DNA of 43,083 nt. Source: a virus. The stretch covers positions 1 to 43,083 of the IMG/VR virus record IMGVR_UViG_3300037247_000567; one strand, given 5' to 3'. Made by a program: the position numbers and the translations under genes. Positions 128-38,580 of the stretch are shown here, piece after piece (within the stretch, counting starts at the first letter, position 1; every line of letters begins with the position of its first letter). The notes under the pieces were generated by a model. That model was not told the DNA's origin, searched no databases, and saw nothing but the letters and a program-made list of their open reading frames with translations.

Positions 128-3100
128 CAAGGGAATGAAGCCAGGGGCTAGGGTCACAGGACTCGCCCAGGACGGGGAACAGATTGAGGGTACGCTGATT
201 CAGGTAGCGGGTGAAAAGGCCATCATCCGTGACGCTTCGGGAACTGTGCGACCTGTGACCGCGCCTGAATTAGTAGCGGTGGCCACTGAAGGAGGAGTGG
301 GCGCTCGTTTAGGGGAGCGCCTGAAAGACATAGGCCGCGACTTTCGCTTTGGGCCTAGTTCGCGTACCGCTGTTCCTTCGCTTGACCCGTCCGTCCAGAA
401 GTTCGTCAAAGTCTTAAGGACGGCGAAACCCACGCAGAAGACCCTGAAGGCGGAGCGAGCGACTGAATTGGGTCGGAGAGCGGCGAAGGGTCGTGTCCCG
501 TTTGAGGCAGAGGCGAGGACGCCAGAGGAAGCGTTGGCGGGTCTCAGGGGTGCCCAGAAAGGCAAACTGCCAGCGCCGCCTGAGTTTGAGGTAACGCTTG
601 TTCCTGGTAAGTTCCCGAAGGTGGAACAAGCACAGCGGGCTCTCACGACAGGGCGTATAAAGGGTAAGCCTATTACACCAGCACAACGGGAGCTGTTTGA
701 GTCTATCGTTGAGGGCCGAGTCGAACCCATAGAGAGAGTAACAGGCGTCTTGAAGGACGCCTTCACCCAGGAAGAGGTGACTAACTTCATCAACATCGCC
801 CGTTTCTCCCCCGCACTAGACCGCGAAGTATTCACCAGGGCTAACGTCCTCGAAAGCCTGTTGGGTTCTCTGGAGAAGAAGGGCATCCTATTCGGGCGAC
901 TTCCGACTCCTGGGGAATTGAAGAATCTCGAACGTGTTTACGGTGCGGAGTTCGCCCGTGAGCTTCAGAAACTCCGGCCCTTCGGTGAACGGTTCTGGCG
1001 GCTGACGCTGGACGCCCTTAACATCCCGCGTTCCTTCTTGGCGGCGTTCGACCTCTCGTTCCCGTTCCGGCAGGGCGTGTTCGCGTTTGCGCGGCACCCT
1101 AAAGAGTTCTTCGGCAACCTTCCCGCTATGTTGCGAGCTGCTAAGAACCCTGAGTTTGCGGAGCAGATGGTGGCTGCGATTAAGGCTGACAAGACATTGA
1201 TACAGACCACTGAAGGGTTCCGCCCCCTCAACGAATTGATGGAGGAAGCCAGATTGTTCTTGCCCGACGTTTCGGGCACGGAAGCGTTTGAGGCACGGGC
1301 TGAGGAGTTCCTTTCGACACTGGCTCACCGCATTCCTGGGGTTGGGTTCTCTGAACGAGGATTCATCGCTTACGGCGACAAACTGCGTGCAGACATTTTC
1401 CGCAATACTCTTCAGTCTTGGGCGCGACAGGCCAAGCCCGCGACCGCTGACGAGATTGCTGACCTGGGGATTATGCTGAACGTCCTGACGGGCCGAGGGA
1501 ACCTTCCGCCCGAACTTGCCAAGAGCCTGTCGTTTGGCTTCTTCGCGCCCCGCTTCGCGGCATCGAGGCCGCAACTGTTCTTGGCTGCGACCATCAATAA
1601 CATCCCAGGGGCTAGGAGAGTGACGGGTACGCTCCTGGGCGCTCCTGGGCAGACAACCAGAGTAGCGCGACTCGCCACACAAGAACTTGTGACCTCAGTG
1701 AGTGCGGGGCTGGCGATACTGGGCCTGGTTAAACTGTCGGGTGCGGGAGACGTGGAACTTGACCCACGGTCTAGCGACTTCGGGAAAATAAAGATTGGCA
1801 AAACCCGCATCGACTTCTGGGGCGGTGCGCGGCCTTGGGCGACGATGATTGCCCGGATGATTACGGGCAAGAGCAAGTCGGTGACGGGCGAGTTCGACAT
1901 TACTCGCCTGAGTACGCTGGGAAGATTCGGACGGAGTAAACTGGCCCCGCCTGCGGCGCTGATTGTTGACGTAGTTGCTGGCGAGACGGCTATCGGAGAA
2001 GAGATCGGAACCACGGGAGATATACTCCGCCGAACTCTCCCCCTCGCCATACAGGACGTTGCGGACGCGGTGATACAGGAAGGGCTGACGCAGGGACTAT
2101 TGTCTCCGTTAGCGTTTCTGGGAGTGGGATTCCAGACCTACGAGACCATTGGCGAAAAGAAGAAGAAGGCGTTTGAGGAAGCCTTCCCCGACCGGACTTA
2201 CGAGGCCACCCCAGACGACAACCGCCTCGTGCGGGGGGCCATCGAAGAGGACAACAACAAAGACGCTCTAGAGGAAGCCTTCCAGCCCTCTCCTGAACAG
2301 ATGGAGACGGAGGAGGCTAGGGTGGCGCAGGCACAGGAATTGGGCCTGTTTACACTGGCGCAGGGAGTTGAGGAGTTACGGGGTCAGAGCCCAGAGGCAA
2401 TACTGACAGGCAATAACAATTCTGGCCCAGAGTTTGCCGACGTGTGGGTGGACTACCTGGACAGGATTTCGGGCGCGATATTTGAGGCCACGTTCGGCAA
2501 GGAAAAAAGAGGAAGCCCAGAGTATCTCGCTTGGCGGGACATCAAACTTCAGCGTGATCCCATCACCCGTGAGCCTTTGTGGGACGAGTTCTTCGCGGCG
2601 AAGGACGCCGCCCTTGCGAAGCTCGACCCCCGCCTACAGCGGGCATTGGATTTGGTGGACGCCCCAGGTGACGACCCCACACTACAGAAAGCGGTGGAGG
2701 ACTTCTACGCCGCCCGTGACAAGAGACGGGAACTGTTCGACATCCCTCGTTGGACGGATATTGGGGCTGCTGAACAGCAACAGATTGAGGAAGTCCACGA
2801 GCTTGTGGAGCGTAAGCGAACTGAACTTGCCTTCCAAGGCTTCGGGGATATTCCCGCTGGTGAAATATATAACATCGTTCAAGAGGAAAACGGCATCCCA
2901 GAACCTCTAATGGCCTTGGCGTTCGACCTTCGGCCAGGAACCAGCTTTGCTGACCAGTCTCGTAACCCTGAATACGACTCAACGTTGCTCGCCTCAACGG
3001 GGGCGCTGTTACCGTTCTTTCCCGATATGTTCAGACGACGCGAGATTCAGGCGGCACTAGGGTCGGGGGCGGAGAGTTTCGTGCCCATCAATTCACTGGC

Positions 3101-3182
3101 CGCAGACCCCACAAACACACTCGCGGCAGAGCCAACCATTTCAGAAAGTTTTGTTCCCTTAGAGGCATTAGCTGCGAGATAG
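3..3182 (+). CDS. 3' part (about 1,060 codons) of a junction-spanning virion-associated protein of about 1,302 codons. Same gene as 42230..43083.
   Basis: The frame is open from base 3, upstream of the track Met at 33. Residues LRGGEEGGGTLAGIGEAKDFF are encoded at both window ends. The gene lies between portal and scaffold genes. It has hydrophobic Ala/Gly/Leu-rich central segments and an acidic C-terminal third. TAG stop at 3180-3182. Confidence 0.85.
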   Translation, partial: LRGGEEGGGTLAGIGEAKDFFGRLVDPLLPQGGIPGGFKPRPKGMKPGARVTGLAQDGEQIEGTLIQVAGEKAIIRDASGTVRPVTAPELVAVATEGGVGARLGERLKDIGRDFRFGPSSRTAVPSLDPSVQKFVKVLRTAKPTQKTLKAERATELGRRAAKGRVPFEAEARTPEEALAGLRGAQKGKLPAPPEFEVTLVPGKFPKVEQAQRALTTGRIKGKPITPAQRELFESIVEGRVEPIERVTGVLKDAFTQEEVTNFINIARFSPALDREVFTRANVLESLLGSLEKKGILFGRLPTPGELKNLERVYGAEFARELQKLRPFGERFWRLTLDALNIPRSFLAAFDLSFPFRQGVFAFARHPKEFFGNLPAMLRAAKNPEFAEQMVAAIKADKTLIQTTEGFRPLNELMEEARLFLPDVSGTEAFEARAEEFLSTLAHRIPGVGFSERGFIAYGDKLRADIFRNTLQSWARQAKPATADEIADLGIMLNVLTGRGNLPPELAKSLSFGFFAPRFAASRPQLFLAATINNIPGARRVTGTLLGAPGQTTRVARLATQELVTSVSAGLAILGLVKLSGAGDVELDPRSSDFGKIKIGKTRIDFWGGARPWATMIARMITGKSKSVTGEFDITRLSTLGRFGRSKLAPPAALIVDVVAGETAIGEEIGTTGDILRRTLPLAIQDVADAVIQEGLTQGLLSPLAFLGVGFQTYETIGEKKKKAFEEAFPDRTYEATPDDNRLVRGAIEEDNNKDALEEAFQPSPEQMETEEARVAQAQELGLFTLAQGVEELRGQSPEAILTGNNNSGPEFADVWVDYLDRISGAIFEATFGKEKRGSPEYLAWRDIKLQRDPITREPLWDEFFAAKDAALAKLDPRLQRALDLVDAPGDDPTLQKAVEDFYAARDKRRELFDIPRWTDIGAAEQQQIEEVHELVERKRTELAFQGFGDIPAGEIYNIVQEENGIPEPLMALAFDLRPGTSFADQSRNPEYDSTLLASTGALLPFFPDMFRRREIQAALGSGAESFVPINSLAADPTNTLAAEPTISESFVPLEALAAR

Positions 3183-3194
3183 GAAGGATGAACA

Positions 3195-4634
3195 ATGGGA
3201 CATATCTCTGAAAGCGTAGCTGGATTTATAGGTGGCAATACACTCGGCAATCTGGGTGCCCCTGTCGGGCCAACGAGTGGCGGGCCGACTACCGGGCAGG
3301 TTCTGTCTAAGTTCTTCGATGCCCAAGGGAACCAACTCTTCGTTGACGAGATTGCGAATCAACAGTTCGTTCAGGACGCAAACGGTATATTCTATGTTCC
3401 CCGTTTTGACGGTCGCGGCCAATTCCAGGGTGTTGAATTGGCTTCCGCTTCACAGCAAGACATTATCAACGAAGCCCTCAACCCTACCGCCCCCGCAGGC
3501 CGCGCCCCTCCCTCCTTCGGCTCCACTCAGGCCGCACAGACACAGGCTGAGACGTTTGCACGGGAGCAGGCCGCGATACTCGCTCAGGCAAGGAAAGACG
3601 AACTGGCGGTTGCCGAGGCCCAGGCTGAACTAGACCGCCTCATCGGAGAGCGCGAAACGAAGCTCGGTATCGCCCGCGACATCATCGCCCAGAAAGAGGC
3701 GTCGGCACGAGAGGCCAGGGGCCAGGGACTTGAGTTCGCGGGTGAAGATATCTTCCGGTTCACCGCCGGAATACGTGGCGGGCGGGTAGCGTCGGGTGTC
3801 CATACTCCCGCCGATGTATTCCGTGGCGAACTTCAGCGGGCCGGGTCGTTCCAAGCCCCTGACTTGCAACAATTTGCCGGGGGGCAAACGGCGGGCGAGC
3901 TGGGTGTTGACATCGACGCTCTCGATAGCGTTCTTGCCAAGCTAGGCACAGACCAGGGCGTCCCGACATCGTTCGGGTTCGCCCACGGCGGCACCCTCTC
4001 TCCTGGGGGAGTTCTCGGCGGTGGCGGAGGCGATGGTTCTCAGGCCGTCCGTATTGGCGAAGAAGGGCCAGAAATCCTCATCCTTCGTCCTGACGGTAGT
4101 GTCGAGGTGGTGCCGATGGCTGGTAGCGCCGCTCACGGGGGAAGGTTCAGCGCGGAGTCGCTAGGCGGCTTCCAGTCACTCTTCCAGAACCTCCGTTCGT
4201 CTGTGGGGCTTCAGCCCGGCGCGTTGACGGCCAGCACTGGGAGGGGGATATTGTCAGATACGGCACGCAGCCGTCTAGGCATCGCCCCACGCGGCTTCGA
4301 GCCCCAAATCACGGGCCGAGCCCCGGCCTTCCAGGCCATCGGGCGTAGTCTTACCAATGTGAAGCCGGGTGCGTTTCAAGCACTACGCGCTGCACACCCT
4401 AACCTGTCGAGACAAGACGCTCGCGCTCAGGCGCTACAGTTACAGCGGACGATAGGGTTGCTCCCAGCGCCGCACAAGATACCGCCACTGTTCTTTGCTG
4501 GCTTGGTTCCAGCAGAACAGAAGGCGCTAGTTAGCGCCTACCGCTTCGCGGGGTTCCCAGAGAGTGACTTCAGGCACCTTTTGACGGTAACTCAACTTTC
4601 CGCTAATCCTGTGGCAGCGACCGCTGTAGGGTAA
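3195..4634 (+). CDS. Virion internal/ejection-like protein, function unknown (479 aa)
   Basis: Long ORF with a GGAAGGA RBS upstream. Coiled-coil-like segment QAETFAREQAAILAQARKDELAVAEAQAELDRL, then a Gly-rich tract and GEEGPEILILRP. Located between the giant gene and scaffold. Confidence 0.7.
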   Translation: MGHISESVAGFIGGNTLGNLGAPVGPTSGGPTTGQVLSKFFDAQGNQLFVDEIANQQFVQDANGIFYVPRFDGRGQFQGVELASASQQDIINEALNPTAPAGRAPPSFGSTQAAQTQAETFAREQAAILAQARKDELAVAEAQAELDRLIGERETKLGIARDIIAQKEASAREARGQGLEFAGEDIFRFTAGIRGGRVASGVHTPADVFRGELQRAGSFQAPDLQQFAGGQTAGELGVDIDALDSVLAKLGTDQGVPTSFGFAHGGTLSPGGVLGGGGGDGSQAVRIGEEGPEILILRPDGSVEVVPMAGSAAHGGRFSAESLGGFQSLFQNLRSSVGLQPGALTASTGRGILSDTARSRLGIAPRGFEPQITGRAPAFQAIGRSLTNVKPGAFQALRAAHPNLSRQDARAQALQLQRTIGLLPAPHKIPPLFFAGLVPAEQKALVSAYRFAGFPESDFRHLLTVTQLSANPVAATAVG

Positions 4635-4653: not shown

Positions 4654-4676
4654 GCGCCCTGAGATGGGCGCTTTTT
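4654..4676 (+). terminator. Rho-independent terminator-like hairpin inside the structural operon
   Basis: GCGCCC (4654-4659), loop TGAGAT, GGGCGC (4666-4671), then TTTTT (4672-4676). It lies 20 nt after the TAA at 4632-4634. Confidence 0.7.
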
Positions 4677-4689
4677 GATTGGAGGAGAC

Positions 4690-5556
4690 ATGGAAGACGA
4701 CACGGCTGCAACGACAGCCCAAGAGCCTGGAGCGACGCAGGGATTTGAGGCCGCTGCTGAAGCGGCTGCGAAGACTGCGGAGCCCGCCCCGACGCAAGAA
4801 GGGACGGTGACGGGCGAGGGCGCGGAGGAGCTAAAGGTTCCCAGCACATTTGAGGAGTTTGAGAGTTCCGAGCGGCACCAGACTGCGCTCGCGGGAGCGC
4901 GGACGGCGGCGGTCGAAGAGGCCAAGCCCGACTTTCTCCGTGAAGCGAAGTCGGCTGCCTATAGGGAGTTCGACTCCTCTCACCAGCGGGTAGAGGCCCA
5001 TATAGCAACTCTAGCCCAGACTGGGCAGGCGATGAGCGGCGCTTGGTCGGATGCGCTTGATGATTTCGCCCAAAAGGGCGGTGACTCGAAAGAGCTTCAA
5101 CGTGTCTTGCGAGGCGTCATGCGTGAGAACCCTGGATGGGCCGAGGCGGTCAATAGCTCAATGTATGGGCAAGGCCAAGACGCGGCCCTACGGAAACTAG
5201 CTGACGAGTCAGGCGATCCCAGCCTTCTGTCGGACGTTTATCTCAGGCTGAGGAACGACCCAAGTATGGGAGATGCGGGGTTCGCCCGCGAAATCCTCGA
5301 CCGACTGACTGAGGCCCGAACCGGTGGCCGAATCAAAGAGGCCGTCGAAAAGGCCGTCAAGCCGAAGGACGAGGAGATCGCAAGGCTCACGGCCAGCCTG
5401 AACCAACTCAAGGGGCAGAGTCGCGAGGGGCCGGAAAGACTACCTGGGAGTGCCGGGGGCGGAAAACGGTATTCACAACTAACGCCAGATGAGCGTCGTG
5501 CTATGTCTAGTAAAGAGATCGACGCGATGCTGGCACGAGAAAGAGGAGAAAAATAG
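4690..5556 (+). CDS. Scaffolding-like protein (288 aa)
   Basis: ATG 4690 is preceded by GGAGGAG. The track start 4675 is a TTG inside the terminator U-tract. The protein is acidic, Ala/Glu-rich and helical-looking, and sits immediately upstream of the capsid gene. Confidence 0.6.
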   Translation: MEDDTAATTAQEPGATQGFEAAAEAAAKTAEPAPTQEGTVTGEGAEELKVPSTFEEFESSERHQTALAGARTAAVEEAKPDFLREAKSAAYREFDSSHQRVEAHIATLAQTGQAMSGAWSDALDDFAQKGGDSKELQRVLRGVMRENPGWAEAVNSSMYGQGQDAALRKLADESGDPSLLSDVYLRLRNDPSMGDAGFAREILDRLTEARTGGRIKEAVEKAVKPKDEEIARLTASLNQLKGQSREGPERLPGSAGGGKRYSQLTPDERRAMSSKEIDAMLARERGEK

Positions 5557-6447
5557 ATGGCAGTCAATACAGTAAATGTAGGAACAGCAGCTAACTGGAT
5601 ACCTGAAAACTGGCATCCAGAACTGTCGGACGCGGTTCAGGCCCATGTTGGGCTCGCCGACTTGGTTGACCGCTCGTTCGACAGCACGATGAAAAACGGC
5701 GACATTCTCCGTATCAGCGACAGGGCAAACCTTGCCGTTCGGGGAAAGTCAGCCGACACCACGGCTACGTGGTCGAACGTCACCGAGACACAACAGAACA
5801 TCACTATCAACCGGCAGGTGTACAACGCCTTCCTGGTTGAGAACATCGCGGAGCTTCAGTCACAACACGCCGTCAGGTCGGAGTACACCAACAACATCGC
5901 CTATTCCCTGATGTCGTTTGTTGAGGGAGACCTGACTTCGGGGCTGGCGTCTCTTCCCAATAGTTTCTCGCAGCTTGTCGGCGCGTTGGGTTCCGACCCG
6001 ACCACCGATAACATGATTCGCTCAGTCCAGTACCTAGACGACGCGGACGTGCCGGAAAGCGAAAGGTTCTTCTATATGAGCCCCGGCACTCACGCTGCGC
6101 TGTTGAAGCAGGACGTGTTCATCAACGCCGACTACGGCCCCGCTGGGGGTGTCACGACAGGTCGGATTACCAAGCCCGTCTTCGGGGCGACAGTTCACGT
6201 CTCCACGCTGGCGAGCAACAACCCCTCCACGTCGGGGCAGTCCTACTCGTGGTTCTGCCACAAGAGAGGCGTGGCGCTCATCATGCAACAGATGCCTGAC
6301 ATCCAGAGCCACTGGATTCCGCTGGAGTTTGGCTGGGGCACCACAGCAGACGTGATCTACCAGTTCGCTGAGAGGCTGATCCTGCCTAAGACGGCGGCAT
6401 CCACGTCCCCGAACGACAACTTCAACGTCACCGTGAGAGGGCCATAG
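5557..6447 (+). CDS. Major capsid protein (HK97-fold type inferred)
   Basis: 296 aa with an AGAGGAG RBS. It starts right after the scaffold TAG. Size, position and sequence character fit a major capsid protein. Not verified by search. Confidence 0.7.
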   Translation: MAVNTVNVGTAANWIPENWHPELSDAVQAHVGLADLVDRSFDSTMKNGDILRISDRANLAVRGKSADTTATWSNVTETQQNITINRQVYNAFLVENIAELQSQHAVRSEYTNNIAYSLMSFVEGDLTSGLASLPNSFSQLVGALGSDPTTDNMIRSVQYLDDADVPESERFFYMSPGTHAALLKQDVFINADYGPAGGVTTGRITKPVFGATVHVSTLASNNPSTSGQSYSWFCHKRGVALIMQQMPDIQSHWIPLEFGWGTTADVIYQFAERLILPKTAASTSPNDNFNVTVRGP

Positions 6448-6977
6448 TGCCTTCAGTTCAGGTCAAGCCTGGGAAGATTTATCACCCTCTGTCTTTGACC
6501 TGCAAGTTTCCGGTGGACACTGACCTTGTGTTGGACTGTCAGCGCCTGGGAGGGAAACCCTATCGGGGCACCCTCATCGGAAAGATGCCAGAGCTGCATC
6601 CATTCGTACAGCTCAAGAACCGCGTGATGTCGCAGACGAAGGAGTTTGTGCGGCACATGAAAAGCAAGGGTTATATACCCCAGCAGGCAGAGACCGAAAT
6701 GGAACTGTGGGGGCCGTTTCGGGAGAAGTTCGATATGGAGAAGGCATCCCAACTCGTCAATTTCGAGGAAGGTAATCCCTTCATCCCACAGGGACATTTC
6801 GGCTCTGCCGCGCATGGGGGCTGGCAGTCTGATGGGGTTATCGGCCCCAGAGTGCTGGACAAAGACCTTCTGCGAGACCACCAAGACTGGCGATGGGGAG
6901 TCATCTTCATCGTCAGGGGACACTTTTTAGCCACCAGAGGACACGAGAGCGAAGACACAGGAGGTTTGATCGTATGA
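6447..6977 (+). CDS. Head-module protein, function unknown (176 aa)
   Basis: GTG start overlaps the capsid TAG stop (taGTG). Long co-oriented ORF. Confidence 0.7.
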   Translation: MPSVQVKPGKIYHPLSLTCKFPVDTDLVLDCQRLGGKPYRGTLIGKMPELHPFVQLKNRVMSQTKEFVRHMKSKGYIPQQAETEMELWGPFREKFDMEKASQLVNFEEGNPFIPQGHFGSAAHGGWQSDGVIGPRVLDKDLLRDHQDWRWGVIFIVRGHFLATRGHESEDTGGLIV

Positions 6978-7705
6978 CGCAGGCACCGACAACAGGCTCG
7001 ATGGGAACGGGCAAGAGAGACGAGCGGGTGATCTACTATCGCAAACCGAGTAATGGAGGGCCTGAAGACGGCTGGATCGTCTGGGGCGACTCGGAATCCG
7101 GCACCAAGCTGCGGGATAGAGCTATCTTGGGCTTCCAGCCCCTCTTTGACTACGGGGCCATCACTGGCTACATGGACAGGGAGCAGAAAATCCCCGACCC
7201 AGGGAGCGTCTGGGGGCCTATCCTCCGACACCCAAGTGGCCCAGCGGAGTTTCCAATCTCGCAGATCGTAGCGCTACGCTGGCATATCGACCCGCCCATT
7301 CCCGTGAAGTTCCCGCAACTGAACGGGATGAAGATAACCCAGTATCAGTGTCCGGAGTGTTCCCGCGCTCCGTTTGCGGAGCTGAAAGAGGGCGACAAGG
7401 TAGTCCTCTCGGCCATCAAGTCGCTGGGGAATCACCTCACCATCATGCACAAGTGGGACAGGTTGGCCCTTCTGAAGTGGGGAGAGAGAGTTGGTATCGA
7501 CTTTGACGCCATCGACGCCCGTGTAGAGATTCCTTACGAGTACGAAGAGGAGCCGGAAGTCGAGGACGTAGTGGTGGAGACGAAGACGGCCAGCCTGAAT
7601 AGCGATTGTCCGAAGTGTGACTGGACTCCGAAGTCCTCCGCCAAGAGGCCTGACGTAGCGCTCAGGATGCACCTTCAGACTCACCCTGTGGAGGTTTCGG
7701 CATGA
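6974..7705 (+). CDS. Head-module protein with two C2H2-like zinc knuckles (243 aa)
   Basis: ATGA start/stop overlap with the upstream gene; the track start 6893 is judged too early. Motifs CPEC-x24-HLTIMH and CPKC-x17-HLQTH. Acidic linker EYEEEPEVEDVVVE. Confidence 0.7.
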   Translation: MTQAPTTGSMGTGKRDERVIYYRKPSNGGPEDGWIVWGDSESGTKLRDRAILGFQPLFDYGAITGYMDREQKIPDPGSVWGPILRHPSGPAEFPISQIVALRWHIDPPIPVKFPQLNGMKITQYQCPECSRAPFAELKEGDKVVLSAIKSLGNHLTIMHKWDRLALLKWGERVGIDFDAIDARVEIPYEYEEEPEVEDVVVETKTASLNSDCPKCDWTPKSSAKRPDVALRMHLQTHPVEVSA

Positions 7706-7896
7706 CAAAACCAAGGGAACATTGTTGCTGGCTAGATGAGTTGGCCTACAAGAAAGCAGAGAAGACATTGCGGGGCGAAGGTGGCCCGTTCTGTTCGTGT
7801 GCGCAGATTAAATGGATGGAGGCGGTTCCGTATTCGTCATTGGTCTCAGAGCCACGTGAGACGAATGAGCCAGCAGTTCAAATGGAACGGAAGTGA
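7702..7896 (+). CDS. Hypothetical small protein (64 aa, Cys-containing)
   Basis: ATGA overlap with the upstream stop. Co-oriented. Confidence 0.55.
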   Translation: MTKPREHCCWLDELAYKKAEKTLRGEGGPFCSCAQIKWMEAVPYSSLVSEPRETNEPAVQMERK

Positions 7897-8744
7897 CCAA
7901 GCCTAAAGTCTATATCGGCTCCGCTATCTGGCGCTCGGTAGAGCCTCTGCACATGAAGTCGCTCCTCCGCTTGCTTACGAAGAAGGAGGGCGACCCTGGC
8001 CCGACCTATGAGTATTGGCCCCAGACCGGGGACGCTTGCATGGAGAGGGTGCGGGGCATTTCGGCCACGTACTTCCTTCGTCACACTGAGGCCGATGTCC
8101 ACCTCTCGCTGGACTCCGACATCGTGGAGTTCGATAGGGTAGCCATCGACCAGATGTGCGAACAGGCGATGGAGTACGACATCGTGGGTGCGGTGTACAT
8201 CTGCCGCTCCACGGCACGGACGTTCCCAGCGACCTTTTTCAACGACGGAGGGGAGATTGAATTCGCCTTCGATCCGACACCAAAGGCTGTCCAGTGGGTA
8301 GCTACCGGCTGTTTAGCGGTTCATAGAAGGGTGTTCGAGAGGATGGCCGAGGCGATGCCTCTCTTGCACGAGAGGGACGGCAAGAGGGCGTTCTACGACT
8401 TCTACGAGACGATGCACTATGACACAAAGGATATGGGGCTAATCAAGCTGACTGAGGACTATGCCTTCTCACAGAGGGCGAAGGACTTGGGATTCACGTC
8501 CTATATCAACCCCGCTGTGAGGGTGGGACACATGGGGCCTTACGCCTACCGCCTAGAGGACATGGCACAGGTGTTGTTAGAGCCCCAACCCATGAAGCTC
8601 GAACGGCGGGGAACAGTCTGGCGGGTGGATTGCGCTATGAACGAAGACACTTCAAGGAATCAAGGAGGAGAGAGTAGGAAGACTAACCGCGCCGCACGAC
8701 GGCGCGACGAGCGAAACGAGAAAAAGGCACTGACCACTATCTAG
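7893..8744 (+). CDS. GT-A fold (family 2-like) glycosyltransferase
   Basis: GTGA overlap start. DxD-type motif SLDSDIV. ATGCLAVHRRVFERM and TEDYAFSQRAKDLGF...RVGHMG resemble GT2 signatures. Recognised by eye only. Confidence 0.6.
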   Translation: MTKPKVYIGSAIWRSVEPLHMKSLLRLLTKKEGDPGPTYEYWPQTGDACMERVRGISATYFLRHTEADVHLSLDSDIVEFDRVAIDQMCEQAMEYDIVGAVYICRSTARTFPATFFNDGGEIEFAFDPTPKAVQWVATGCLAVHRRVFERMAEAMPLLHERDGKRAFYDFYETMHYDTKDMGLIKLTEDYAFSQRAKDLGFTSYINPAVRVGHMGPYAYRLEDMAQVLLEPQPMKLERRGTVWRVDCAMNEDTSRNQGGESRKTNRAARRRDERNEKKALTTI

Positions 8745-8768
8745 TGGACTACTTGAAAGGAGTAGACA

Positions 8769-9593
8769 ATGCCAGATGGATCAACATACGGAAACCTTCT
8801 TCTACCCAGCGGGTTCCATCACATTCAGCGGTTCGGCCCTTCGCAGAGCGCGTTGGCGCAGTTTTTATACCCCGCCGCGTGGCGGGATGTGATCTTCGTC
8901 CACGACCACTTCACGGGGCCTGCCCTGAACACTCACCTGTGGACAGCGGCGGGCCAGAATGGGACGGACTTTGACCCACCGAGCACTCAGCTCTTGGGCG
9001 GGGTCGCCCAAGCGTCGGTAAACAATGTCGCCCAGGATCAGAACTCCATTCGGTCGGATACGGTGTGGGCGGGGGATAACAACTGTGGTGTAGAGTTCCG
9101 ATGGAAGATAGACAACATCGACACCCTGTTGTTCGAGATGGGGTTCAACGACCCCCTCGGTTCTTACGCCGCTACGGACGATGGGGCTATCGACAACCAT
9201 GACACTCCTACCATCGGCAACAGCGCGACGGACGTGGCGCTGGTGTCGAGGGATTCGGGTGCCTCTCTGACCACCATGCAGTTCGTCACGGACGGCTCCA
9301 CCGCCAGCATGAACACCACGGGCACAAACTTGGGGACACGGACTCCCACCAACGCCGTCTACCAGACGGTACGGGTGCAGCTTACGCAAACCGCATCCGC
9401 TGTCGCCGCCTCCCACGCCTACGTGTTCGACCAGAACGGGGCGCTGCAAGAGGACGCCCAGCATGGTTCCGTTCTCGCCAGCCAGATCAAGGGCGACGTG
9501 TTACTGGAGGCGCGGCTCTACGTCGAAGCCTTAACCACCGCTGCGAGAGTGTGTGACATCGACGCTATCACGATATGGCAGGACTTGGCGTAA
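8769..9593 (+). CDS. Beta-rich protein, possibly ConA/LamG-like jelly roll (274 aa); candidate decoration or substrate protein
   Basis: AAGGAG RBS. The segment DHFTGPALNTHLWTAAG and a Thr/Ser/Asn/Asp-rich beta-type composition. The fold assignment is a guess. Confidence 0.45.
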   Translation: MPDGSTYGNLLLPSGFHHIQRFGPSQSALAQFLYPAAWRDVIFVHDHFTGPALNTHLWTAAGQNGTDFDPPSTQLLGGVAQASVNNVAQDQNSIRSDTVWAGDNNCGVEFRWKIDNIDTLLFEMGFNDPLGSYAATDDGAIDNHDTPTIGNSATDVALVSRDSGASLTTMQFVTDGSTASMNTTGTNLGTRTPTNAVYQTVRVQLTQTASAVAASHAYVFDQNGALQEDAQHGSVLASQIKGDVLLEARLYVEALTTAARVCDIDAITIWQDLA

Positions 9594-9615
9594 TGGAACG
9601 CATAGAGGATGCGCC

Positions 9616-10008
9616 ATGCGGCTGTCCACGGTACGGCCAGGGTCTAACAAGGATGTTTCCCGGCCACCAGGAGGGCTGCAAAGACAAGGCGTCTGCCAAG
9701 AAAACTGCGCGGCCTGTTGTCAGTACATCGTCCTCCAAGTCAACCCGCAGTACGCGGAAGAGAAAGACGTAAAGCACTGGATTGAGCTTCACGGCATCAA
9801 TCTAGTCAAGCGAGGCGGGGCGTTGTGGGCCTACATCCCAACGCCCTGTTCTGCTTTAGACGGAACGAGGTGTAGCCTATACGACACGAAAGACAGGCCG
9901 AAGGTCTGTGACGTTTGGCCCACGTCGCAGGCCGACATAGACGACTTAGAAGACCATACGGGCCAGAAATGCACGTATTACTTCCCAGGGAAAGGGGGTG
10001 AGAAATGA
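9616..10008 (+). CDS. YkgJ/UPF0153 (CxxCxxCC, FliB-related) zinc/iron-chelating domain protein (130 aa)
   Basis: ATG 9616 with a GAGGA RBS follows the upstream stop; the track start 9553 overlaps the previous gene. Motifs CQENCAACC and CSALDGTRCSLYDTKDRPKVCDVWP match the family pattern C..C..CC ... C.(I/L)Y..RP..C..(F/W)P. Confidence 0.65.
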   Translation: MRLSTVRPGSNKDVSRPPGGLQRQGVCQENCAACCQYIVLQVNPQYAEEKDVKHWIELHGINLVKRGGALWAYIPTPCSALDGTRCSLYDTKDRPKVCDVWPTSQADIDDLEDHTGQKCTYYFPGKGGEK

Positions 10009-10286
10009 TTAACTGGCGGCGACTTGTGGGCCTTGATAGACAGTGGGAGGATTCCACAGGTCTTGGCCTCGACTTCCCCGAACAATCAGGGGGTCGTGAG
10101 CGCGGCAAGTTCCGTGAGAGCGAACACCCCCGTCTGACGACGGTGGCTGTTGTCGGCGATGACGGCGAGCCTGTCGCGGCTACCTCAGATCAACTCTTGG
10201 CAGAACTGGTCTATGAGGTGAGGCTAATGCGCCATGCCCTAGTTCTAGGGGGTATGGCCGCAGACATCGACGAACCATTCAATTAG
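10005..10286 (+). CDS. Hypothetical protein (93 aa)
   Basis: ATGA overlap with the upstream stop. Confidence 0.6.
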   Translation: MINWRRLVGLDRQWEDSTGLGLDFPEQSGGRERGKFRESEHPRLTTVAVVGDDGEPVAATSDQLLAELVYEVRLMRHALVLGGMAADIDEPFN

Positions 10287-10324
10287 TTTCCCCGCTCCTG
10301 AGTGAGGGGGAGAAAGGTAGAAAA

Positions 10325-10978
10325 ATGTCTATCAGTTTACAGATGCCATTCAAGTTTAAGGGTGGCAATGCCGAACCACAGCTGAGCGTTGACAATGCCC
10401 AGCTCGTCCAGACCCTTCATGGGAAGCACTACGAAGACACCCTAGCAGGGCGGGTCTTCTCGCACACGCCGACACCCGCAGGATTGGCTATTCCCATCTT
10501 CACGGCAACGGCCCTCGCTGGGGGTATGCCGATCTGGAACCCCAGCAACTCTAACGTCAACGTGGAGTTGATTTCTGTCAGCATCAACCGTGCCTCTGGC
10601 ACGGCAGCGGTTCTCAGCGTTGGGCTGATGCACCGTAATAACCTAGGCGTTGACCTCGCCACTGGCTCTGAGATCACGGCATTCGCGGAAACCGATCCGC
10701 TCAACGGGCTTCTAGGGGCGGGCTACGCCTCGCAGGTGAAGTCATCCAACGCTGGCACGGTCACGGTGACTGCTGGTGTAGCGGCTGAGTTCGTTCGGGC
10801 GCTATTCGGCAGCGGCATTGAGGCGGACACGCACACCAACGGTATTTCATACCTAGTCCACGACTTCGATGGTACGGTAATCGTGCCGCCAGGGTCGATG
10901 GTTTGGCTGGGCGCGAAGCTGGCTAGTGTGGCGCTCTACAACTCCACCATCGTCTGGAAAGAGATTCCAATCCGCTAG
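10325..10978 (+). CDS. Beta-rich virion protein, function unknown (217 aa)
   Basis: Purine-rich RBS (GAGAAAGG). Beta-sandwich-like composition. The C-terminal pattern resembles those of 17622..17957 and 17957..19447. Confidence 0.65.
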   Translation: MSISLQMPFKFKGGNAEPQLSVDNAQLVQTLHGKHYEDTLAGRVFSHTPTPAGLAIPIFTATALAGGMPIWNPSNSNVNVELISVSINRASGTAAVLSVGLMHRNNLGVDLATGSEITAFAETDPLNGLLGAGYASQVKSSNAGTVTVTAGVAAEFVRALFGSGIEADTHTNGISYLVHDFDGTVIVPPGSMVWLGAKLASVALYNSTIVWKEIPIR

Positions 10979-11247
10979 TGCCAACCTACGACTATCGGTG
11001 TCCTAACGGGCACACCACAGAGGCTCGCAGGGGAGTAGAGGTAAGCTCACTCCCCTGCCCGCTCTGTGAAGAATTGGCTCAGCGCGTCCCCGTCTACGAA
11101 GAGCAATACACCCGCACCGACTCAGGTGGGATGCAGGGACGGATGGGCAAAGCGGGCACCATCCCGGAGAGCGTAGAACGGTACGCCCGCAACTCAGCGA
11201 CGATTGAGAAGGAGACGGGCAATAAGAGCGGCCTCAAGCTCCGCTAG
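10978..11247 (+). CDS. FmdB-like zinc-ribbon protein (89 aa)
   Basis: GTG overlaps the upstream TAG. The N-terminus MPTYDYRCPNGH...LPCPLCEE resembles the FmdB family MP.YeYrC..C...CP.C, with the second ligand being His rather than Cys. Confidence 0.5.
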   Translation: MPTYDYRCPNGHTTEARRGVEVSSLPCPLCEELAQRVPVYEEQYTRTDSGGMQGRMGKAGTIPESVERYARNSATIEKETGNKSGLKLR

Positions 11248-11324
11248 CACCCGTGCGGGGATGGCAGCCCTGCCCCGTTCGAGTCAATGCACGATGGGTA
11301 CACCAACTTGATAGGAGTAAAATA

Positions 11325-11384
11325 ATGCCAAAACACGGGCCTAAAGGCAATCCACACAAGCGGCGCAAGCCTCCGAAGAAGTAG
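11325..11384 (+). CDS. Micro-ORF encoding a 19-aa ultra-basic peptide (MPKHGPKGNPHKRRKPPKK)
   Basis: AGGAG RBS 7 nt upstream. No acidic residues. TAG stop abuts the next ATG. Confidence 0.5.
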   Translation: MPKHGPKGNPHKRRKPPKK

Positions 11385-11504
11385 ATGGTCACGAAGGCCA
11401 AAGCCAAGAAGATACTCAAACACGGCTCTGTCCACGGGAAGCCCCTGACTAAGAAAGCGCGGGGGTTCTTCGGGGCCAGGGTAGGCGGCAAGCGCCGCAA
11501 GTGA
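11385..11504 (+). CDS. Micro-ORF encoding a 39-aa ultra-basic peptide (MVTKAKAKKILKHGSVHGKPLTKKARGFFGARVGGKRRK)
   Basis: The ATG directly follows the TAG of the previous micro-ORF, in the same frame. 14 Lys/Arg and no acidic residues. Confidence 0.5.
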   Translation: MVTKAKAKKILKHGSVHGKPLTKKARGFFGARVGGKRRK

Positions 11505-11526
11505 CATCACGAAATGGAGTAGCGCT

Positions 11527-11682
11527 ATGGCGATAGTAAGCAAGGGCACGAAAATTGTACGGCATAAAGGCGAGCGGTATGCTTCATGCCATGTCAGCGG
11601 GAGGGAGTGGAAACAGGACAAGAAATATCGGGAATCCATAGAGCGGGAAATGGCTTGGATGTTGGACAATGTTAAGGAGTAG
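11527..11682 (+). CDS. Small basic protein (51 aa)
   Basis: GGAG RBS 8 nt upstream. It ends 3 nt before the next gene, whose AAGGAG RBS lies within its 3' end. Confidence 0.55.
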   Translation: MAIVSKGTKIVRHKGERYASCHVSGREWKQDKKYRESIEREMAWMLDNVKE

Positions 11683-11685
11683 CCC

Positions 11686-12918
11686 ATGCCAGCCTTCATT
11701 GACTATCAGCGCGAATTAGCGCGGAGACTGTACGAACACGAACTCCCCCAAGTCGCGGGCACCAACACCTCCACCGACGCGGCAACCCTCACCGACTTGC
11801 TGGGGAACCTGAACTACTCCTCTGGGGACACATCCTTCTATGACGGGGTGTACGTTTCTCTCGTCAAAGGCTCGGACAACACCACGAAAGGCGTAGGCCG
11901 TGTCACCCGTGGGGGCTGGACGGTCACGGGCTCGCTTACGGTAGACCCTTCATTCTCGTCTACCCCCGCCTCCGCCGATTTGTACGTTCTCACCAAACAC
12001 CCTCCTCGACTTTTGCAGGACGCCATCAACCGCATCTTGCGCAACTCCTACCAGCCTACGTTCTTTCCGTTGTCCCTCCACATCATGGGGAACGACGCGA
12101 ACGACATGGAGCCGTCCACGACAGCAACGGATTATAGCTCTACTAACGCCACGAACACCTTAGAATCCACCATCGTCTTCAACGGCGCTCAATCTCTTCA
12201 GATAGATGCCACTTCAGCGGGCGGCTTTGCGAACACGGGCAACATTGGTGTTAACGACGGACAAACTCTTTACGCCGCCGTCATGATGTACGTGACTTCG
12301 GGCGACTCGGGCACCTTCCGAGCCATCGATGTCACCAACTCTAACGTCACCATTGAGGACGCTAAGACTGATGAACCATCATGGTTGGAAATGTTATACA
12401 GCTTCTCAGCTCCAGCGGGTTGTGAACAGATAGACTTCCGTTTCATCGCGGACGCTAACACTGACATTATCTATGTAGAGGACTTTCAAGTATGGCGACA
12501 AGACCGAGCTGTTTACCCTGTCCCATCTTGGATAGAGTGGCCTGAGCAAATAATCGACGTAAGAGCCTTCCCGCAGGGGACGGCTGGGCCTACGTCGGGT
12601 AACGACTTCCGTGCTAACGAGAGAGCGTCGGTGCGCCTTGACTGGCACGTCGAACGCGAGGATAGGCGGGCCGATGTTCCGCTCCACATTTGGGTGCAGT
12701 ATACAGGGGACGCCCGCCCTTACATCTACGCCCATCGCCCGTTCGCGGAACTGACCGCTACCGAGGGCACCTCCAACGCCGACCTGGACGCTGTGGTGGA
12801 GGACGCCGCCTTTCTCGTTCTTCACCCCGATAGGGCGGAACAGTATCTAAGTGTGTTGCGGCAGAACCGTCTCGGCGGAGCCGTAGTCGTTGCGCCCAAG
12901 AGGGTTGGGGTTAGATAG
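11686..12918 (+). CDS. Virion structural protein of the tail region, function unknown (410 aa)
   Basis: AAGGAG RBS. Long ORF upstream of the large tail genes. Confidence 0.7.
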   Translation: MPAFIDYQRELARRLYEHELPQVAGTNTSTDAATLTDLLGNLNYSSGDTSFYDGVYVSLVKGSDNTTKGVGRVTRGGWTVTGSLTVDPSFSSTPASADLYVLTKHPPRLLQDAINRILRNSYQPTFFPLSLHIMGNDANDMEPSTTATDYSSTNATNTLESTIVFNGAQSLQIDATSAGGFANTGNIGVNDGQTLYAAVMMYVTSGDSGTFRAIDVTNSNVTIEDAKTDEPSWLEMLYSFSAPAGCEQIDFRFIADANTDIIYVEDFQVWRQDRAVYPVPSWIEWPEQIIDVRAFPQGTAGPTSGNDFRANERASVRLDWHVEREDRRADVPLHIWVQYTGDARPYIYAHRPFAELTATEGTSNADLDAVVEDAAFLVLHPDRAEQYLSVLRQNRLGGAVVVAPKRVGVR

Positions 12919-21091: not shown

Positions 21092-21562
21092 ATGAAGGTA
21101 GACGAGTTTATCCGGCTAGAGGTACAGCATCAGGGCTTCGACTTGGCGACACAGCGGGGCCAGAACCGTGTCAAGTGGATGGCGGAGGCGTGGGAACACG
21201 CGACTTGGGTGAAACAAAAAGGCGGCCCAAAGACTAGCCAGCCTTGTGCTGGCTGTGCCGAAGAGCTTGGCAAACTTGTAGAGCACGAGAAGAACCGCAA
21301 CGGATTTCGCACCGCTGTCAATGTTCGGGTGGGGAATAGGTTTGCGCCCCACTACGGCGACGTTCGCTACCTTATGGAGCTTCTTGAACGGTGGGAGCCA
21401 GAGGACGAGGAAGAGTGCTTGGAGTGGTATCGCTGCTTTGAGATCATTCACCCATTCATCGACGGTAACGGGCGCGTCGGGAAGATTCTCTACAACTGGT
21501 GGCTGGACAAACTAGACGACCCTGAAATGCCGCCTGACCTATTTGGGGGAGGTGTGCCATGA
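21092..21562 (+). CDS. Fic-domain protein (minimal, 156 aa), predicted AMPylase-type enzyme
   Basis: Core motif HPFIDGNGRVGK matches HxFx(D/E)GNGRxxR, with terminal K in place of R. Upstream FRTAVNVRVGNRFAPHYGDV fits the Fic fold context. GGAGGA RBS. Confidence 0.8.
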   Translation: MKVDEFIRLEVQHQGFDLATQRGQNRVKWMAEAWEHATWVKQKGGPKTSQPCAGCAEELGKLVEHEKNRNGFRTAVNVRVGNRFAPHYGDVRYLMELLERWEPEDEEECLEWYRCFEIIHPFIDGNGRVGKILYNWWLDKLDDPEMPPDLFGGGVP

Positions 21563-33405: not shown

Positions 33406-33642
33406 TCACTTCTTCGCCTCCTCAATGGCCTCGCGGGCCAATTCCGATGTGCGATGGCCCTGCGCGTAGCGTTCCAGCGCGGCCAGGAGCTTTGCGTGAT
33501 TGTTGACGGCACGGACAACGATAGCGGCATCGTCTAGAGAATAGACTGTGGCTAACTCTAGGGCCATCCCGTCCGGCCCGCTGATTTGTACCTCATCGTG
33601 TTGAATAGCCTTCGCTTCCCACGGTAGCGGTGTATGTTCCAT
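33406..33642 (-). CDS. Paralog family member 1 (78 aa, MEHTPLPW...)
   Basis: Start set at the ATG preceded by GGAAGGAAGGGA; the track start 33660 lies in the repeated cassette. Shares MEHTPLPW, IVVRAVNNHAKLLAALE and AREAIEEAKK with 34503..34802. Confidence 0.65.
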   Translation of the reverse strand: MEHTPLPWEAKAIQHDEVQISGPDGMALELATVYSLDDAAIVVRAVNNHAKLLAALERYAQGHRTSELAREAIEEAKK

Positions 33643-33669
33643 GTTGTCCCTTCCTTCCATGATGAAATG

Positions 33670-33921
33670 CTAGGACTTGGCTGCCTCAATGGCCTCGCGG
33701 GCACGGCGGGCATCACCTAATGTAACGGTGAGACGCAAAGTGGATGGCGTATCATCTGCTAGGGCAAGTGCGGCCAACGGTGTTAGTGCCAGTGTGAGTT
33801 GGGCGATGGTGGCGGCACGACTTTCAATGGTAGCTGCAAATCGGCTGATGATGTCTCCGTCTAAGAGGGCTATGTCCTTCCAGCGTTGATACTCTTTCGG
33901 CGTTAGTGCTGTATCTTCCAT
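33670..33921 (-). CDS. Paralog family member 2, divergent (83 aa, MEDTALTP...)
   Basis: Same 32-nt upstream cassette as member 1 (31/32 identical). C-terminus ARRAREAIEAAKS. Confidence 0.6.
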   Translation of the reverse strand: MEDTALTPKEYQRWKDIALLDGDIISRFAATIESRAATIAQLTLALTPLAALALADDTPSTLRLTVTLGDARRAREAIEAAKS

Positions 33922-33952
33922 GTTATCCCTTCCTTCCATGATGAAATGGGGG

Positions 33953-34141
33953 CTAGGCGGGTTTGTGGCAAGCATAAAATGCGGTGCTGGCAGAACCAGT
34001 ATTTTCCCAGCGCGATCCATCATTTAGGACTACAACCTCAACGTATTTCTCGCCTGGGCCGATTCTAACTGACTCTACCGCTTTCACGGTGACAATCTTA
34101 CCTGTATAGTCATTGCGGTATCGTTTACCTACGGTTGCCAT
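33953..34141 (-). CDS. Hypothetical beta-rich small protein (62 aa)
   Basis: Track ORF with a GGAGAGGAAG-type RBS upstream. Confidence 0.55.
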   Translation of the reverse strand: MATVGKRYRNDYTGKIVTVKAVESVRIGPGEKYVEVVVLNDGSRWENTGSASTAFYACHKPA

Positions 34142-34502: not shown

Positions 34503-34802
34503 TCAGTCTCCCTTCTTAGCGGCCAGGATGGCGGCGCGGGCCTCTTTGACTTCTGCCATTACGAACGGCGAGCGCTTGCGTTGGGGTGTCTCAAAGTAGC
34601 GGACAAACGCTTCCAGCGCCTCCAGCAGCGCCTCGTGGTTGTTAACGGCGCGGACAATGAAGTCGGCATCGGCGTCGGCGGGCACAATGGCCGTGGGGTG
34701 CGCTAGGAAATCGAGACCCATCCGTTCGCTGCTGCCATCAATGCGCCACCAATCTTGAGTTGTCTGTCCGTTTCGCATCCAGGGCAGGGGTGTGTGTTCC
34801 AT
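34503..34802 (-). CDS. Paralog family member 3 (99 aa, MEHTPLPW...)
   Basis: ATG 34802 after GAGAGGAGACG. Motifs FIVRAVNNHEALLEALE and ARAAILAAKKGD. Confidence 0.65.
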   Translation of the reverse strand: MEHTPLPWMRNGQTTQDWWRIDGSSERMGLDFLAHPTAIVPADADADFIVRAVNNHEALLEALEAFVRYFETPQRKRSPFVMAEVKEARAAILAAKKGD

Positions 34803-34819
34803 ATCGTCTCCTCTCATGG

Positions 34820-38356: not shown

Positions 38357-38580
38357 AGTACTCAGCCGCAGTTACGGGTGCCCGACTTGGCCCGCGCATT
38401 CCAGAGTTGTTCGCGCCGAAGTTCACCTACAGTCTAGGTGGCGAGCCCGACTCCTTCACTTGGGAGTTCATCCCAGAGGGCGAGGTTTGGAATTACACCC
38501 GTGAGGGCGCGCCGATGGTAGCCGACGAGGACTTGGTGAAGTTGGTGACCTTTAGGGAGCGTTCCATCATTGGTCACTGA
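38353..38580 (+). CDS. Hypothetical protein (75 aa)
   Basis: ATGA overlap start. Immediately upstream of terL. Confidence 0.55.
   Translation: MKYSAAVTGARLGPRIPELFAPKFTYSLGGEPDSFTWEFIPEGEVWNYTREGAPMVADEDLVKLVTFRERSIIGH

Follow-up and report, generated by a model that had tools for sequence, protein, structure and literature searches.

In mycobacteriophages, glycosylation of the virion by phage-encoded enzymes has been shown, and it shields the particles from antibodies. Virion glycosyltransferases (GTs) of these phages, such as Che8 gp110 and Corndog gp38, are described by Freeman et al. (2023), as that work is cited in PMC12363180, PMC11600133 and PMC11256854. In cluster O, an O-methyltransferase gene followed by three GT genes is reported to modify the capsid and the tail tube (PMC11600133), and in cluster F1 the virion GT genes lie near the genome 3′ end, not beside the capsid gene (PMC11256854). 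Sulfolobus turreted icosahedral virus (STIV) encodes an essential GT, A197, and its major coat protein is glycosylated (PMC10551542). Here we analyse a 43,083-base stretch, record IMGVR_UViG_3300037247_000567 (the window hereafter), a phage-like genome from an uncultured tailed phage whose coat protein resembles that of T7. Three open reading frames (ORFs) on the + strand, at 7893-8744, 8769-9593 and 9616-10008, lie between its coat gene and its large virion genes and encode a GT-A-fold glycosyltransferase, a concanavalin A (ConA)-like protein and a YkgJ-type protein with a cysteine cluster. Our reading, which we hold with somewhat less than even confidence, is that the GT-A enzyme, soluble and expressed late, adds sugar to a virion protein (the coat or the ConA-like protein) in the cytoplasm, and that methylation is added in those clades where the GT is fused to a methyltransferase.

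The locus resembles the mycobacteriophage cassettes in that phage-encoded GTs are proposed to decorate virion proteins in the cytoplasm, and in having a methyltransferase partner, a separate O-methyltransferase in cluster O and a fused S-adenosylmethionine (SAM) methyltransferase in sister clades of the present lineage. Tandem GTs, found in the mycobacteriophages, also occur in a related capsid lineage (L239). It differs from them in that a single core GT is embedded directly after the coat gene, in a lineage with a T7-like capsid that is uncultured and known from genes alone. A sequence-only reading of the window had likened the locus to actinophage GTs encoded next to structural genes, a parallel that the 3′ position of the cluster F1 genes does not support. 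As far as sequences can tell, what appears to be new relative to known virion glycosylation is an unrelated enzyme family, encoded by a core gene that is fixed beside the coat gene in an uncultured lineage with a T7-like capsid; this would not make it a new category.

A GT-A glycosyltransferase encoded in the head operon

The 283-aa product of 7893..8744 (+ strand) carries a DxD...ED...H signature and ends in a basic helix, the latter being common to many, not all, homologues. Sequence searches alone gave little: matches to Pfam were below threshold (Glyco_transf_21, 15.6 bits for a cut-off of 21.7; MGS_GT, 14.2 for a cut-off of 27), NCBIfam returned none, so that no curated GT sequence family was reached at threshold, and the only PHROG match was to phrog_1574, “unknown function” (3.7e-14). 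Single-sequence searches of the PDB with all three proteins produced noise only. Close metagenomic homologues of the GT numbered 83, and an AlphaFold2 model built on 31 homologues reached a mean predicted local distance difference test score (pLDDT) of 90.2 and a predicted template modelling score (pTM) of 0.85. Compared with the PDB by Foldseek, this model gave 88 matches at E<=1e-3, and all 50 of those listed were GT-A or GT-A-like proteins. Its top neighbours were STIV A197, GalNAc-T2, the GT domain of LH3, Mnn9, mimivirus R699, B4GALNT1 and COLGALT1, many of which (GalNAc-T2, LH3, COLGALT1) are protein-modifying enzymes.

The best structural match was A197 (PDB 2c0n; E 7e-8, TM 0.64 on the target), and the GT family profile, run against the sequences of the PDB, retrieved this protein alone (E 0.05), their DxD regions coming into alignment. 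The window protein is, like A197, a small, single-domain, soluble viral GT-A enzyme by prediction; it differs in that the two share 16% identity, that A197 belongs to an archaeal PRD1-type virus, and that A197's own donor and acceptor are unproven. In the model, D74-S-D76 comes after the strand formed by residues 69-74 and aligns with the DED motif of A197. No substitution was seen among 31 homologues, the remotest at 29% identity, in D74 and D76 (SLDSDIV), E188 and D189 (TEDYAF) or H213-G215 (HMG), and D74, D76, E188, D189 and H213 are likewise unchanged in 48 two-domain relatives, described below. The GT-A assignment put forward by the sequence-only reading is thus confirmed, because fold and motif agree, although no curated family threshold was reached, and the DxD, ED and H residues are probably catalytic. 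No membrane segment or signal peptide was obvious in the GT by eye, the only inspection made.

Over positions 5500-12000, the window had no DNA match to the 50,697 records of isolated phages, and tblastn with the GT against the same records found no actinophage; its matches were limited to cyanophages, Caulobacter phage Cr30, a Rhodobacteraceae phage and a marine phage.

The glycosyltransferase is a core gene of the head module

Conservation was examined in 80 viral and 80 metagenome loci collected via the GT, and in further loci collected via the coat protein, all annotated with iterated profiles. The gene order of the block recurs in dozens of independent metagenomic contigs, with an invariant unit made of the scaffold-like gene, the coat gene, the genes that we call g6447 and g6974 (the latter for a C2H2 zinc finger protein) and the GT gene. 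Among GT-anchored loci with at least 2.6 kb upstream, the coat gene was found upstream in 28 of 30, the two exceptions lying outside the lineage. Reciprocally, in the coat-anchored sample a GT was present in every locus whose major capsid protein (MCP) was at least 35% identical and which had enough downstream DNA. Of the remoter coat loci (24-30% identity), 10 of 11 had no GT, the exception being L239, with weak GT-like matches. Gene g6974 lies directly 5′ of the GT in 46 of the 55 relatives with enough flank, and the ConA-like gene directly 3′ of it in 34 of 53. The GT is therefore a core gene of the head module, and the lectin-like gene a frequent neighbour.

The linkage of GT and coat genes survives rearrangement. 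In L154 the order is coat, zinc-finger protein and ConA-like protein, with the GT further downstream. Head-module GTs also recur in other T7-like-capsid lineages. In L018:9917-12590 and L161:1880-4509 a portal gene is followed, at some remove, by GT, scaffold-like protein and coat, the GT standing directly 5′ of the scaffold-like gene. In L239:4677-8343 two ORFs that match the GT family profile weakly (E ~1e-6) and Pfam not at all come directly after the coat gene, together with a Pfam-confirmed GT2 of family PF00535.

As to the host, two short phage-like contigs, L167 and L168, were binned with metagenome-assembled genomes of Gemmatimonadaceae / Gemmatimonadales and are the nearest species-genome matches; L168 contains a coat gene, an ORF in the g6974 position (so called by position alone) and a GT. 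They hint weakly at Gemmatimonadota as the host phylum, and do not suffice for a host assignment.

A lectin-like neighbour

The 274-aa product of 8769..9593 (+ strand) had no sequence-family match, and its family profile retrieved nothing from PDB sequences. The predicted structure (pLDDT 76, pTM 0.79) is a two-sheet jelly roll, a ConA / legume-lectin-like beta-sandwich of the SO2946-like kind. In the PDB, SO2946 (2a5z) scored 5e-9, and both legume lectins and ERGIC-53 scored ~1e-8 to 1e-7, with TM values of 0.5-0.6; against BFVD the model matched SO2946-like proteins at 6.5e-13, so that the “lectin/ConA-like feel” noted in the sequence-only reading was well founded. The fold is shared with legume-lectin domains and SO2946-like proteins, including proteins of uncultured phages and domains within their large tail proteins; the window protein differs from the SO2946-like domains in standing outside their sequence family and in having a distinct, conserved N-terminal extension of ~45 residues.

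These first ~45 residues are among the most conserved of the family, and residues 1-25 were modelled at pLDDT <50. This pattern is consistent with a conserved, flexible N-terminal arm that would anchor the protein to the virion. Tandem copies of the ConA-like gene are found in L103 (three, at 1282-3807) and L104 (two, at 2668-4322). A lectin fold, a conserved N-terminus and tandem paralogues are typical of diversifying surface proteins, and the ConA-like protein is probably a virion-surface protein, either the acceptor of the GT or a glycan binder. Several other metagenome contigs were also seen to carry two ConA-like paralogues each.

A mobile cysteine-cluster protein

The third ORF, 9616..10008 (+ strand), encodes a 130-aa protein with eight conserved cysteines and two predicted metal sites. 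It scores 28.8 bits against PF03692, above the gathering cut-off of 23, which bears out its earlier assignment to YkgJ/UPF0153, and an identical 130-aa product (P0137) is present in the JGI gene calls. In alignment numbering, C31, C34, C35, C78, C86, C98 and C119 are invariant and C27 is nearly so; all eight have aligned counterparts in E. coli YkgJ, a protein 27% identical to this one. The motif of the window protein is Cx3Cx2CC. Since the corresponding spacing varies between Cx2 and Cx3 in the PF03692 family alignment, with close homologues using Cx2Cx2CC, it is not diagnostic. No match to this protein was found in isolated phages by tblastn at E<=1.

What such a protein might do can be approached through two precedents. 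FliB, a [4Fe-4S]- and SAM-dependent flagellin lysine N-methylase of ~400 aa, had been taken in the sequence-only reading for a clear member of the CxxCxxCC family. Its motif is in fact CX4CX3CC, described as merely “similar” to PF03692, and no recognisable domain is reported in it (PMC8598068). The window protein is not a FliB orthologue; it departs from FliB in motif and in being a bare domain of 130 aa, about one third of the size; a scan of NCBIfam gave no FliB family match at E<=1, the presence of a FliB model in that library being unconfirmed. The second precedent is DpdM, which is homologous to YkgJ, carries the motif CxxxCxxCC and has been validated as an enzyme that methylates preQ1 in phage DNA (bioRxiv 10.1101/2023.04.13.536721). 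The window protein shares its Cx3Cx2CC spacing, which carries the reservation just made, and its cysteine count; it differs in that DpdM belongs to DUF3109, to which the window protein had no match at E<=1, and sits among 7-deazaguanine genes (DpdA, QueC/D/E/F), of which there are none in the scanned ORFs of the window, where TGT and Que domains were not found. FliB and DpdM are both precedents for such cysteine clusters supporting unconventional methyl transfer. By analogy, DpdM appears to be the better phage precedent, and the window protein could be a metal-cluster protein for methyl transfer or redox chemistry.

The three genes had been proposed to form one cassette. The ORFs are all present, on the + strand, and they do sit inside the structural operon, co-oriented and tightly packed among structural genes, as had been claimed. 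Co-occurrence failed: of the 29 relatives with 2.5 kb or more of downstream sequence, 9 have the PF03692 gene. In five loci it stands upstream of the coat gene instead of 3′ of the lectin-like gene, between the scaffold-like gene and the MCP gene (L147:798-1217, L157:5114-5500, L163:5496-5837, L236:3327-3716 and L237:1894-2283); it adjoins the coat gene in all of these except L163, where a single ORF separates the two. Though mobile, this accessory gene keeps to the vicinity of the coat gene in the head module, and it is dispensable, not an obligatory partner of the GT. Because the PF03692 gene comes, goes and moves, and the ConA-like gene is only frequent, the three genes are not a unit.

This raises the question whether the three are simply unrelated neighbours, the GT-fold protein being an inert structural or assembly factor and the other two genes independent accessories. 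Close relatives differ for the PF03692 gene, which is present in L087 (GT 89% identical) and missing from L005 (GT 84% identical, 4.2 kb available 3′ of the GT). The ConA-like gene is missing from a whole sister clade, and fusions of the GT to either partner were not found among homologues. An inert GT is another matter. Homologues as remote as 21-29% identity, and the methyltransferase fusions as well, all retain the DxD, ED and His residues, a pattern which implies that catalysis is probably retained, and the repeated, independent fusions to methyltransferases imply an enzymatic role. Taken as a whole, we judge this explanation very improbable.

Methyltransferase fusions and the wider family

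Fusions of the GT to a SAM methyltransferase were found in seven loci of the lineage. In the sister clades the orthologous GT is a protein of ~480 aa, in which the GT-A domain comes first and a class I SAM methyltransferase, matching Methyltransf_23/25/12/11 with E values as low as 2e-12, forms the C-terminal half; this ~480-aa form is listed in L130, L134, L135, L140 (7148-8602), L141, L145, L147, L152 and L165. Family scans found no class I methyltransferase in the window. A HMMER scan of 1.84 billion representatives with the GT family profile retrieved 12,360 representatives at E<=1e-3, about 4,600 at <=1e-10 and 291 at <=1e-30. Among the best 150, 48 had two domains, and at least 42 of these 48 carried a methyltransferase, on either side of the GT, including 8 of FkbM type and 1 RfbT-like. 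Such repeated, independent fusions suggest that the GT normally works with a methyltransferase. The joint theme of glycosylation and methylation advanced in the sequence-only reading therefore stands at the level of the family, through the fused SAM methyltransferase of the sister clades, and its FliB-like link is weak. The idea that the PF03692 gene and the fused methyltransferase are mutually exclusive, functionally equivalent methylases was not supported, as L147 has both.

A chromosomal homologue with 26% identity was noticed in Bradyrhizobium sp. S69 (L179:2206-15805), 3.6 kb upstream of two flagellin genes and flanked by two ATP-grasp-like paralogues, a protein with tetratricopeptide repeats and a GT-like part, and a gene resembling pyridoxal phosphate-dependent decarboxylases. 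The locus may be a flagellin-glycosylation island. As a general pattern the flagellin link was rejected, flagellin being nearby in 2 of 59 genomic loci.

Acceptor of the glycosyltransferase

We propose tentatively that the GT is a metal-dependent (DxD + His) transferase, soluble and using nucleotide sugars, made late along with the structural proteins, and that it would act in the cytoplasm on a virion protein while particles are being assembled. Its most likely acceptor would be the coat protein or the neighbouring ConA-like protein, the latter being probably a surface decoration or fibre protein held by its N-terminal arm. In the sister clades, the fused SAM methyltransferase would also methylate the transferred sugar or the acceptor. 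In addition to the position of the gene, the lack of DNA-modification genes (nucleotide-hydroxymethylase, TET/JBP, DpdA, DNA-methyltransferase) in the scanned ORFs of the window counts in favour of a virion acceptor.

Several observations weigh against this proposal. The window GT has no detectable sequence homology to the mycobacteriophage enzymes, and its acceptor cannot be read from its Foldseek rank among GT-A enzymes. The two neighbours are not faithful companions: the ConA-like gene occurs in 0 of 7 loci of the methyltransferase-fusion sister clade, where other small beta-rich genes are found, and the PF03692 gene, patchy as described above, is present in 7 of the 15 loci with both flanks. 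Finally, the remote homologues of other viral contigs (22-33% identity; L016-L083) mostly adjoin primase/helicase genes (28 of 68 loci) or exonuclease genes (19), and are also near recombinase and deoxynucleoside monophosphate (dNMP) kinase / deoxyribosyltransferase genes; L078:7258-10957 and L076:10010-12492 exemplify a place between the primase/helicase and the exonuclease gene. In Caulobacter phage Cr30 and Rhodobacteraceae phage LS06-2018-MD06 the homologous gene is part of a replication region, and a cyanophage homologue adjoins tail-collar genes, a GT2 and a sugar epimerase. The family is therefore not capsid-specific, and some of its members may modify DNA or nucleotides.

Such contexts invite the suggestion that the window GT itself glycosylates phage DNA, as a hypermodified base protecting against restriction, with the YkgJ-like protein as a DpdM-like nucleic-acid methyltransferase. 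The clustering of remoter homologues with primase, exonuclease and dNMP kinase / deoxyribosyltransferase genes would fit, as would the validated activity of DpdM on preQ1 (bioRxiv 10.1101/2023.04.13.536721) and the Cx3Cx2CC spacing and eight cysteines that the PF03692 protein has in common with it. That spacing, however, is not diagnostic in a family that uses both Cx2 and Cx3, and the DUF3109 search was negative. Nor do the scanned ORFs of the window, the unscanned ones being all <120 aa, include a hydroxymethylase, a TET/JBP, a DpdA/Que or a DNA-methyltransferase. The methyltransferases fused to the GT match generic small-molecule, FkbM-type and RfbT-like families, not DNA methyltransferase families, and genes for DNA modification are not typically placed between those for coat and surface proteins. 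We consider DNA glycosylation by this GT to be rather improbable.

A second possibility is that the GT acts in the infected cell on an acceptor outside the virion, be it an envelope glycan, a lipid carrier, a small molecule or a host protein, for the sake of superinfection exclusion, receptor masking or host takeover, and is merely expressed from the late operon; the ConA-like protein would then simply bind glycans, as a receptor-binding or decoration protein that has nothing to do with the product of the GT. The family is very large, with its 12,360 representatives at E<=1e-3, and is met in many contexts, bacterial chromosomes included. It is frequently fused to methyltransferases of the FkbM type or RfbT-like, which are associated with polysaccharide sugar methylation; its cyanophage member stands beside a GT2 and a nucleotide-sugar epimerase, and ConA-like domains are found in phage tail proteins. 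All of this agrees with a host-directed enzyme. Modifiers of envelope glycans are usually membrane-associated, however, whereas the GT, by eye, has no obvious membrane segment or signal peptide. Its maintenance beside the coat gene throughout the lineage, and in two other capsid lineages with other gene orders, is also difficult to reconcile with a host-directed moron: such genes are, as a rule, patchy in distribution, and the GT is core. An acceptor outside the virion therefore seems unlikely to us.

The proposal of virion glycosylation can also be pushed further. In its strongest form, capsid self-glycosylation, joined by methylation in the sister clades, would be obligatory for head assembly and lineage-defining in several groups of uncultured phages with T7-like capsids. 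The ConA-like protein would be a lectin for the phage's own glycan, docking on the glycosylated coat as a decoration or cement protein, and the YkgJ-type protein would be a third cysteine-cluster enzyme of methyl transfer, with a virion component as its substrate. We give very little credence to this extended version.

Surrounding genes of the head operon

A terminator-like GC hairpin followed by a T run at 4654..4671 (+ strand; 6 GC pairs, tail TTTTTGATTG) lies just 5′ of the scaffold-like gene and marks the 5′ edge of the head operon that holds the GT block. No further terminator-like site was found on the + strand between this hairpin and 11830. Past the wrap-around of the genome, the gene order is two large proteins, the scaffold-like gene, the coat gene, a packed run of + strand genes that stops at 11247, and the large virion genes. 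The large terminase is at 38570-40120 (phrog_38, 9.5e-40), and the 608-aa ORF at 40107-41933 is the presumed portal gene by position, the family search giving no match. Neighbouring genes of the block overlap by 1-4 nt or are separated by 22-38 nt.

The product of 4675..5556 (+), an acidic/coiled protein of 293 aa, is a putative scaffold judging from its position and composition; homologues in relatives occupy the same position, and the family search was without match. The major capsid protein, at 5557..6447 (+), has a T7 gp10A-like HK97 fold (phrog_267 major head protein, 3.7e-28; the Pfam matches to Phage_capsid_2 and Gp10A-like were weak). It is followed by the gene for a conserved 176-aa protein, g6447 (6447..6977, +), identified by its syntenic position between the coat and zinc-finger genes and with no family matches, and by g6974 (6974..7705, +). 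The latter encodes a 243-aa lineage-specific protein, with a conserved N-terminal domain and a C2H2 zinc finger in which C126, C129, H154 and H159 are invariant in the alignment; its profile has the consensus C2H2 finger 1mey as best PDB match (E 0.0012). Classical C2H2 zinc fingers are, to our knowledge, seldom met in proteins of phages. A further, variable CxxC...H...H was seen at the C-terminus of g6974. Between g6974 and the GT, a 64-aa Cys-rich ORF (7702..7896, +) overlaps each of its neighbours by 4 nt, and jackhmmer detected no homologue of it in related loci.

Downstream of the three ORFs, a 93-aa ORF (10005..10286, +) overlaps the stop codon of the PF03692 gene and has homologues in L103, L108, L109 and L159. 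The 217-aa Ala/Gly/Thr-rich protein g10325 (10325..10978, +) comes next; in relatives its slot is taken by one or two copies of an unrelated family of ~215 aa. Comparisons by hhalign among the ConA-like family, this ~215-aa family, g10325 and a ~130-aa family, which is the gene 5′ of the GT in other clades, did not detect homology (probabilities <2%). The run closes with a zinc-ribbon protein of the FmdB / Zn_ribbon_8 type (10978..11247, +; Pfam 31.4 bits for a cut-off of 34.4, TIGR02605 29.3 bits), whose gene is kept across the lineage, 3′ of the variable block. The zinc proteins flanking the three ORFs had been suggested to belong to the same system. They differ in conservation: those starting at 6974 and 10978 are kept across the lineage, the one at 7702 has no detectable homologue elsewhere, and nothing links any of the three to modification chemistry.

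Other features of the window were noted in passing. Between 11248 and 11685, an apparent gap of 438 nt before the gene for a 410-aa virion protein, lie tiny, extremely basic ORFs at 11326 (19 aa), 11386 (~39 aa) and 11527-11682 (51 aa), and comparable Lys/Arg-rich ORFs occupy the matching place in L144. At 21092-21562, a Fic/DOC-domain protein (Pfam 1.8e-7; PADLOC SoFic model 6e-12) may be a phage-borne toxin or a defence-related AMPylase. Three small paralogues with a common N-terminal motif, MEGRDNMEHTPLPW, are encoded on the minus strand at 33406-33660, 33670-34023 and 34503-34817. PADLOC defence-system models had no matches among the block genes, and Rfam and tRNA scans of the window found nothing.

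Significance

In this lineage, known from groundwater, sediment and soil, a core GT gene stands fixed beside that of the coat protein, and the GT often forms a fusion with a methyltransferase. For a very large unannotated family (phrog_1574; about 12,000 cluster representatives), a testable function is thereby proposed, and a GT gene beside the MCP gene offers a simple genomic marker for candidate glycosylated phages. If the virions of these phages are indeed decorated, glyco-decoration would be far more widespread among phages than has been assumed, and in some of them essential. Immune-exposed phages would not be the only ones concerned, and roles in particle stability, adsorption or environmental persistence would be indicated.

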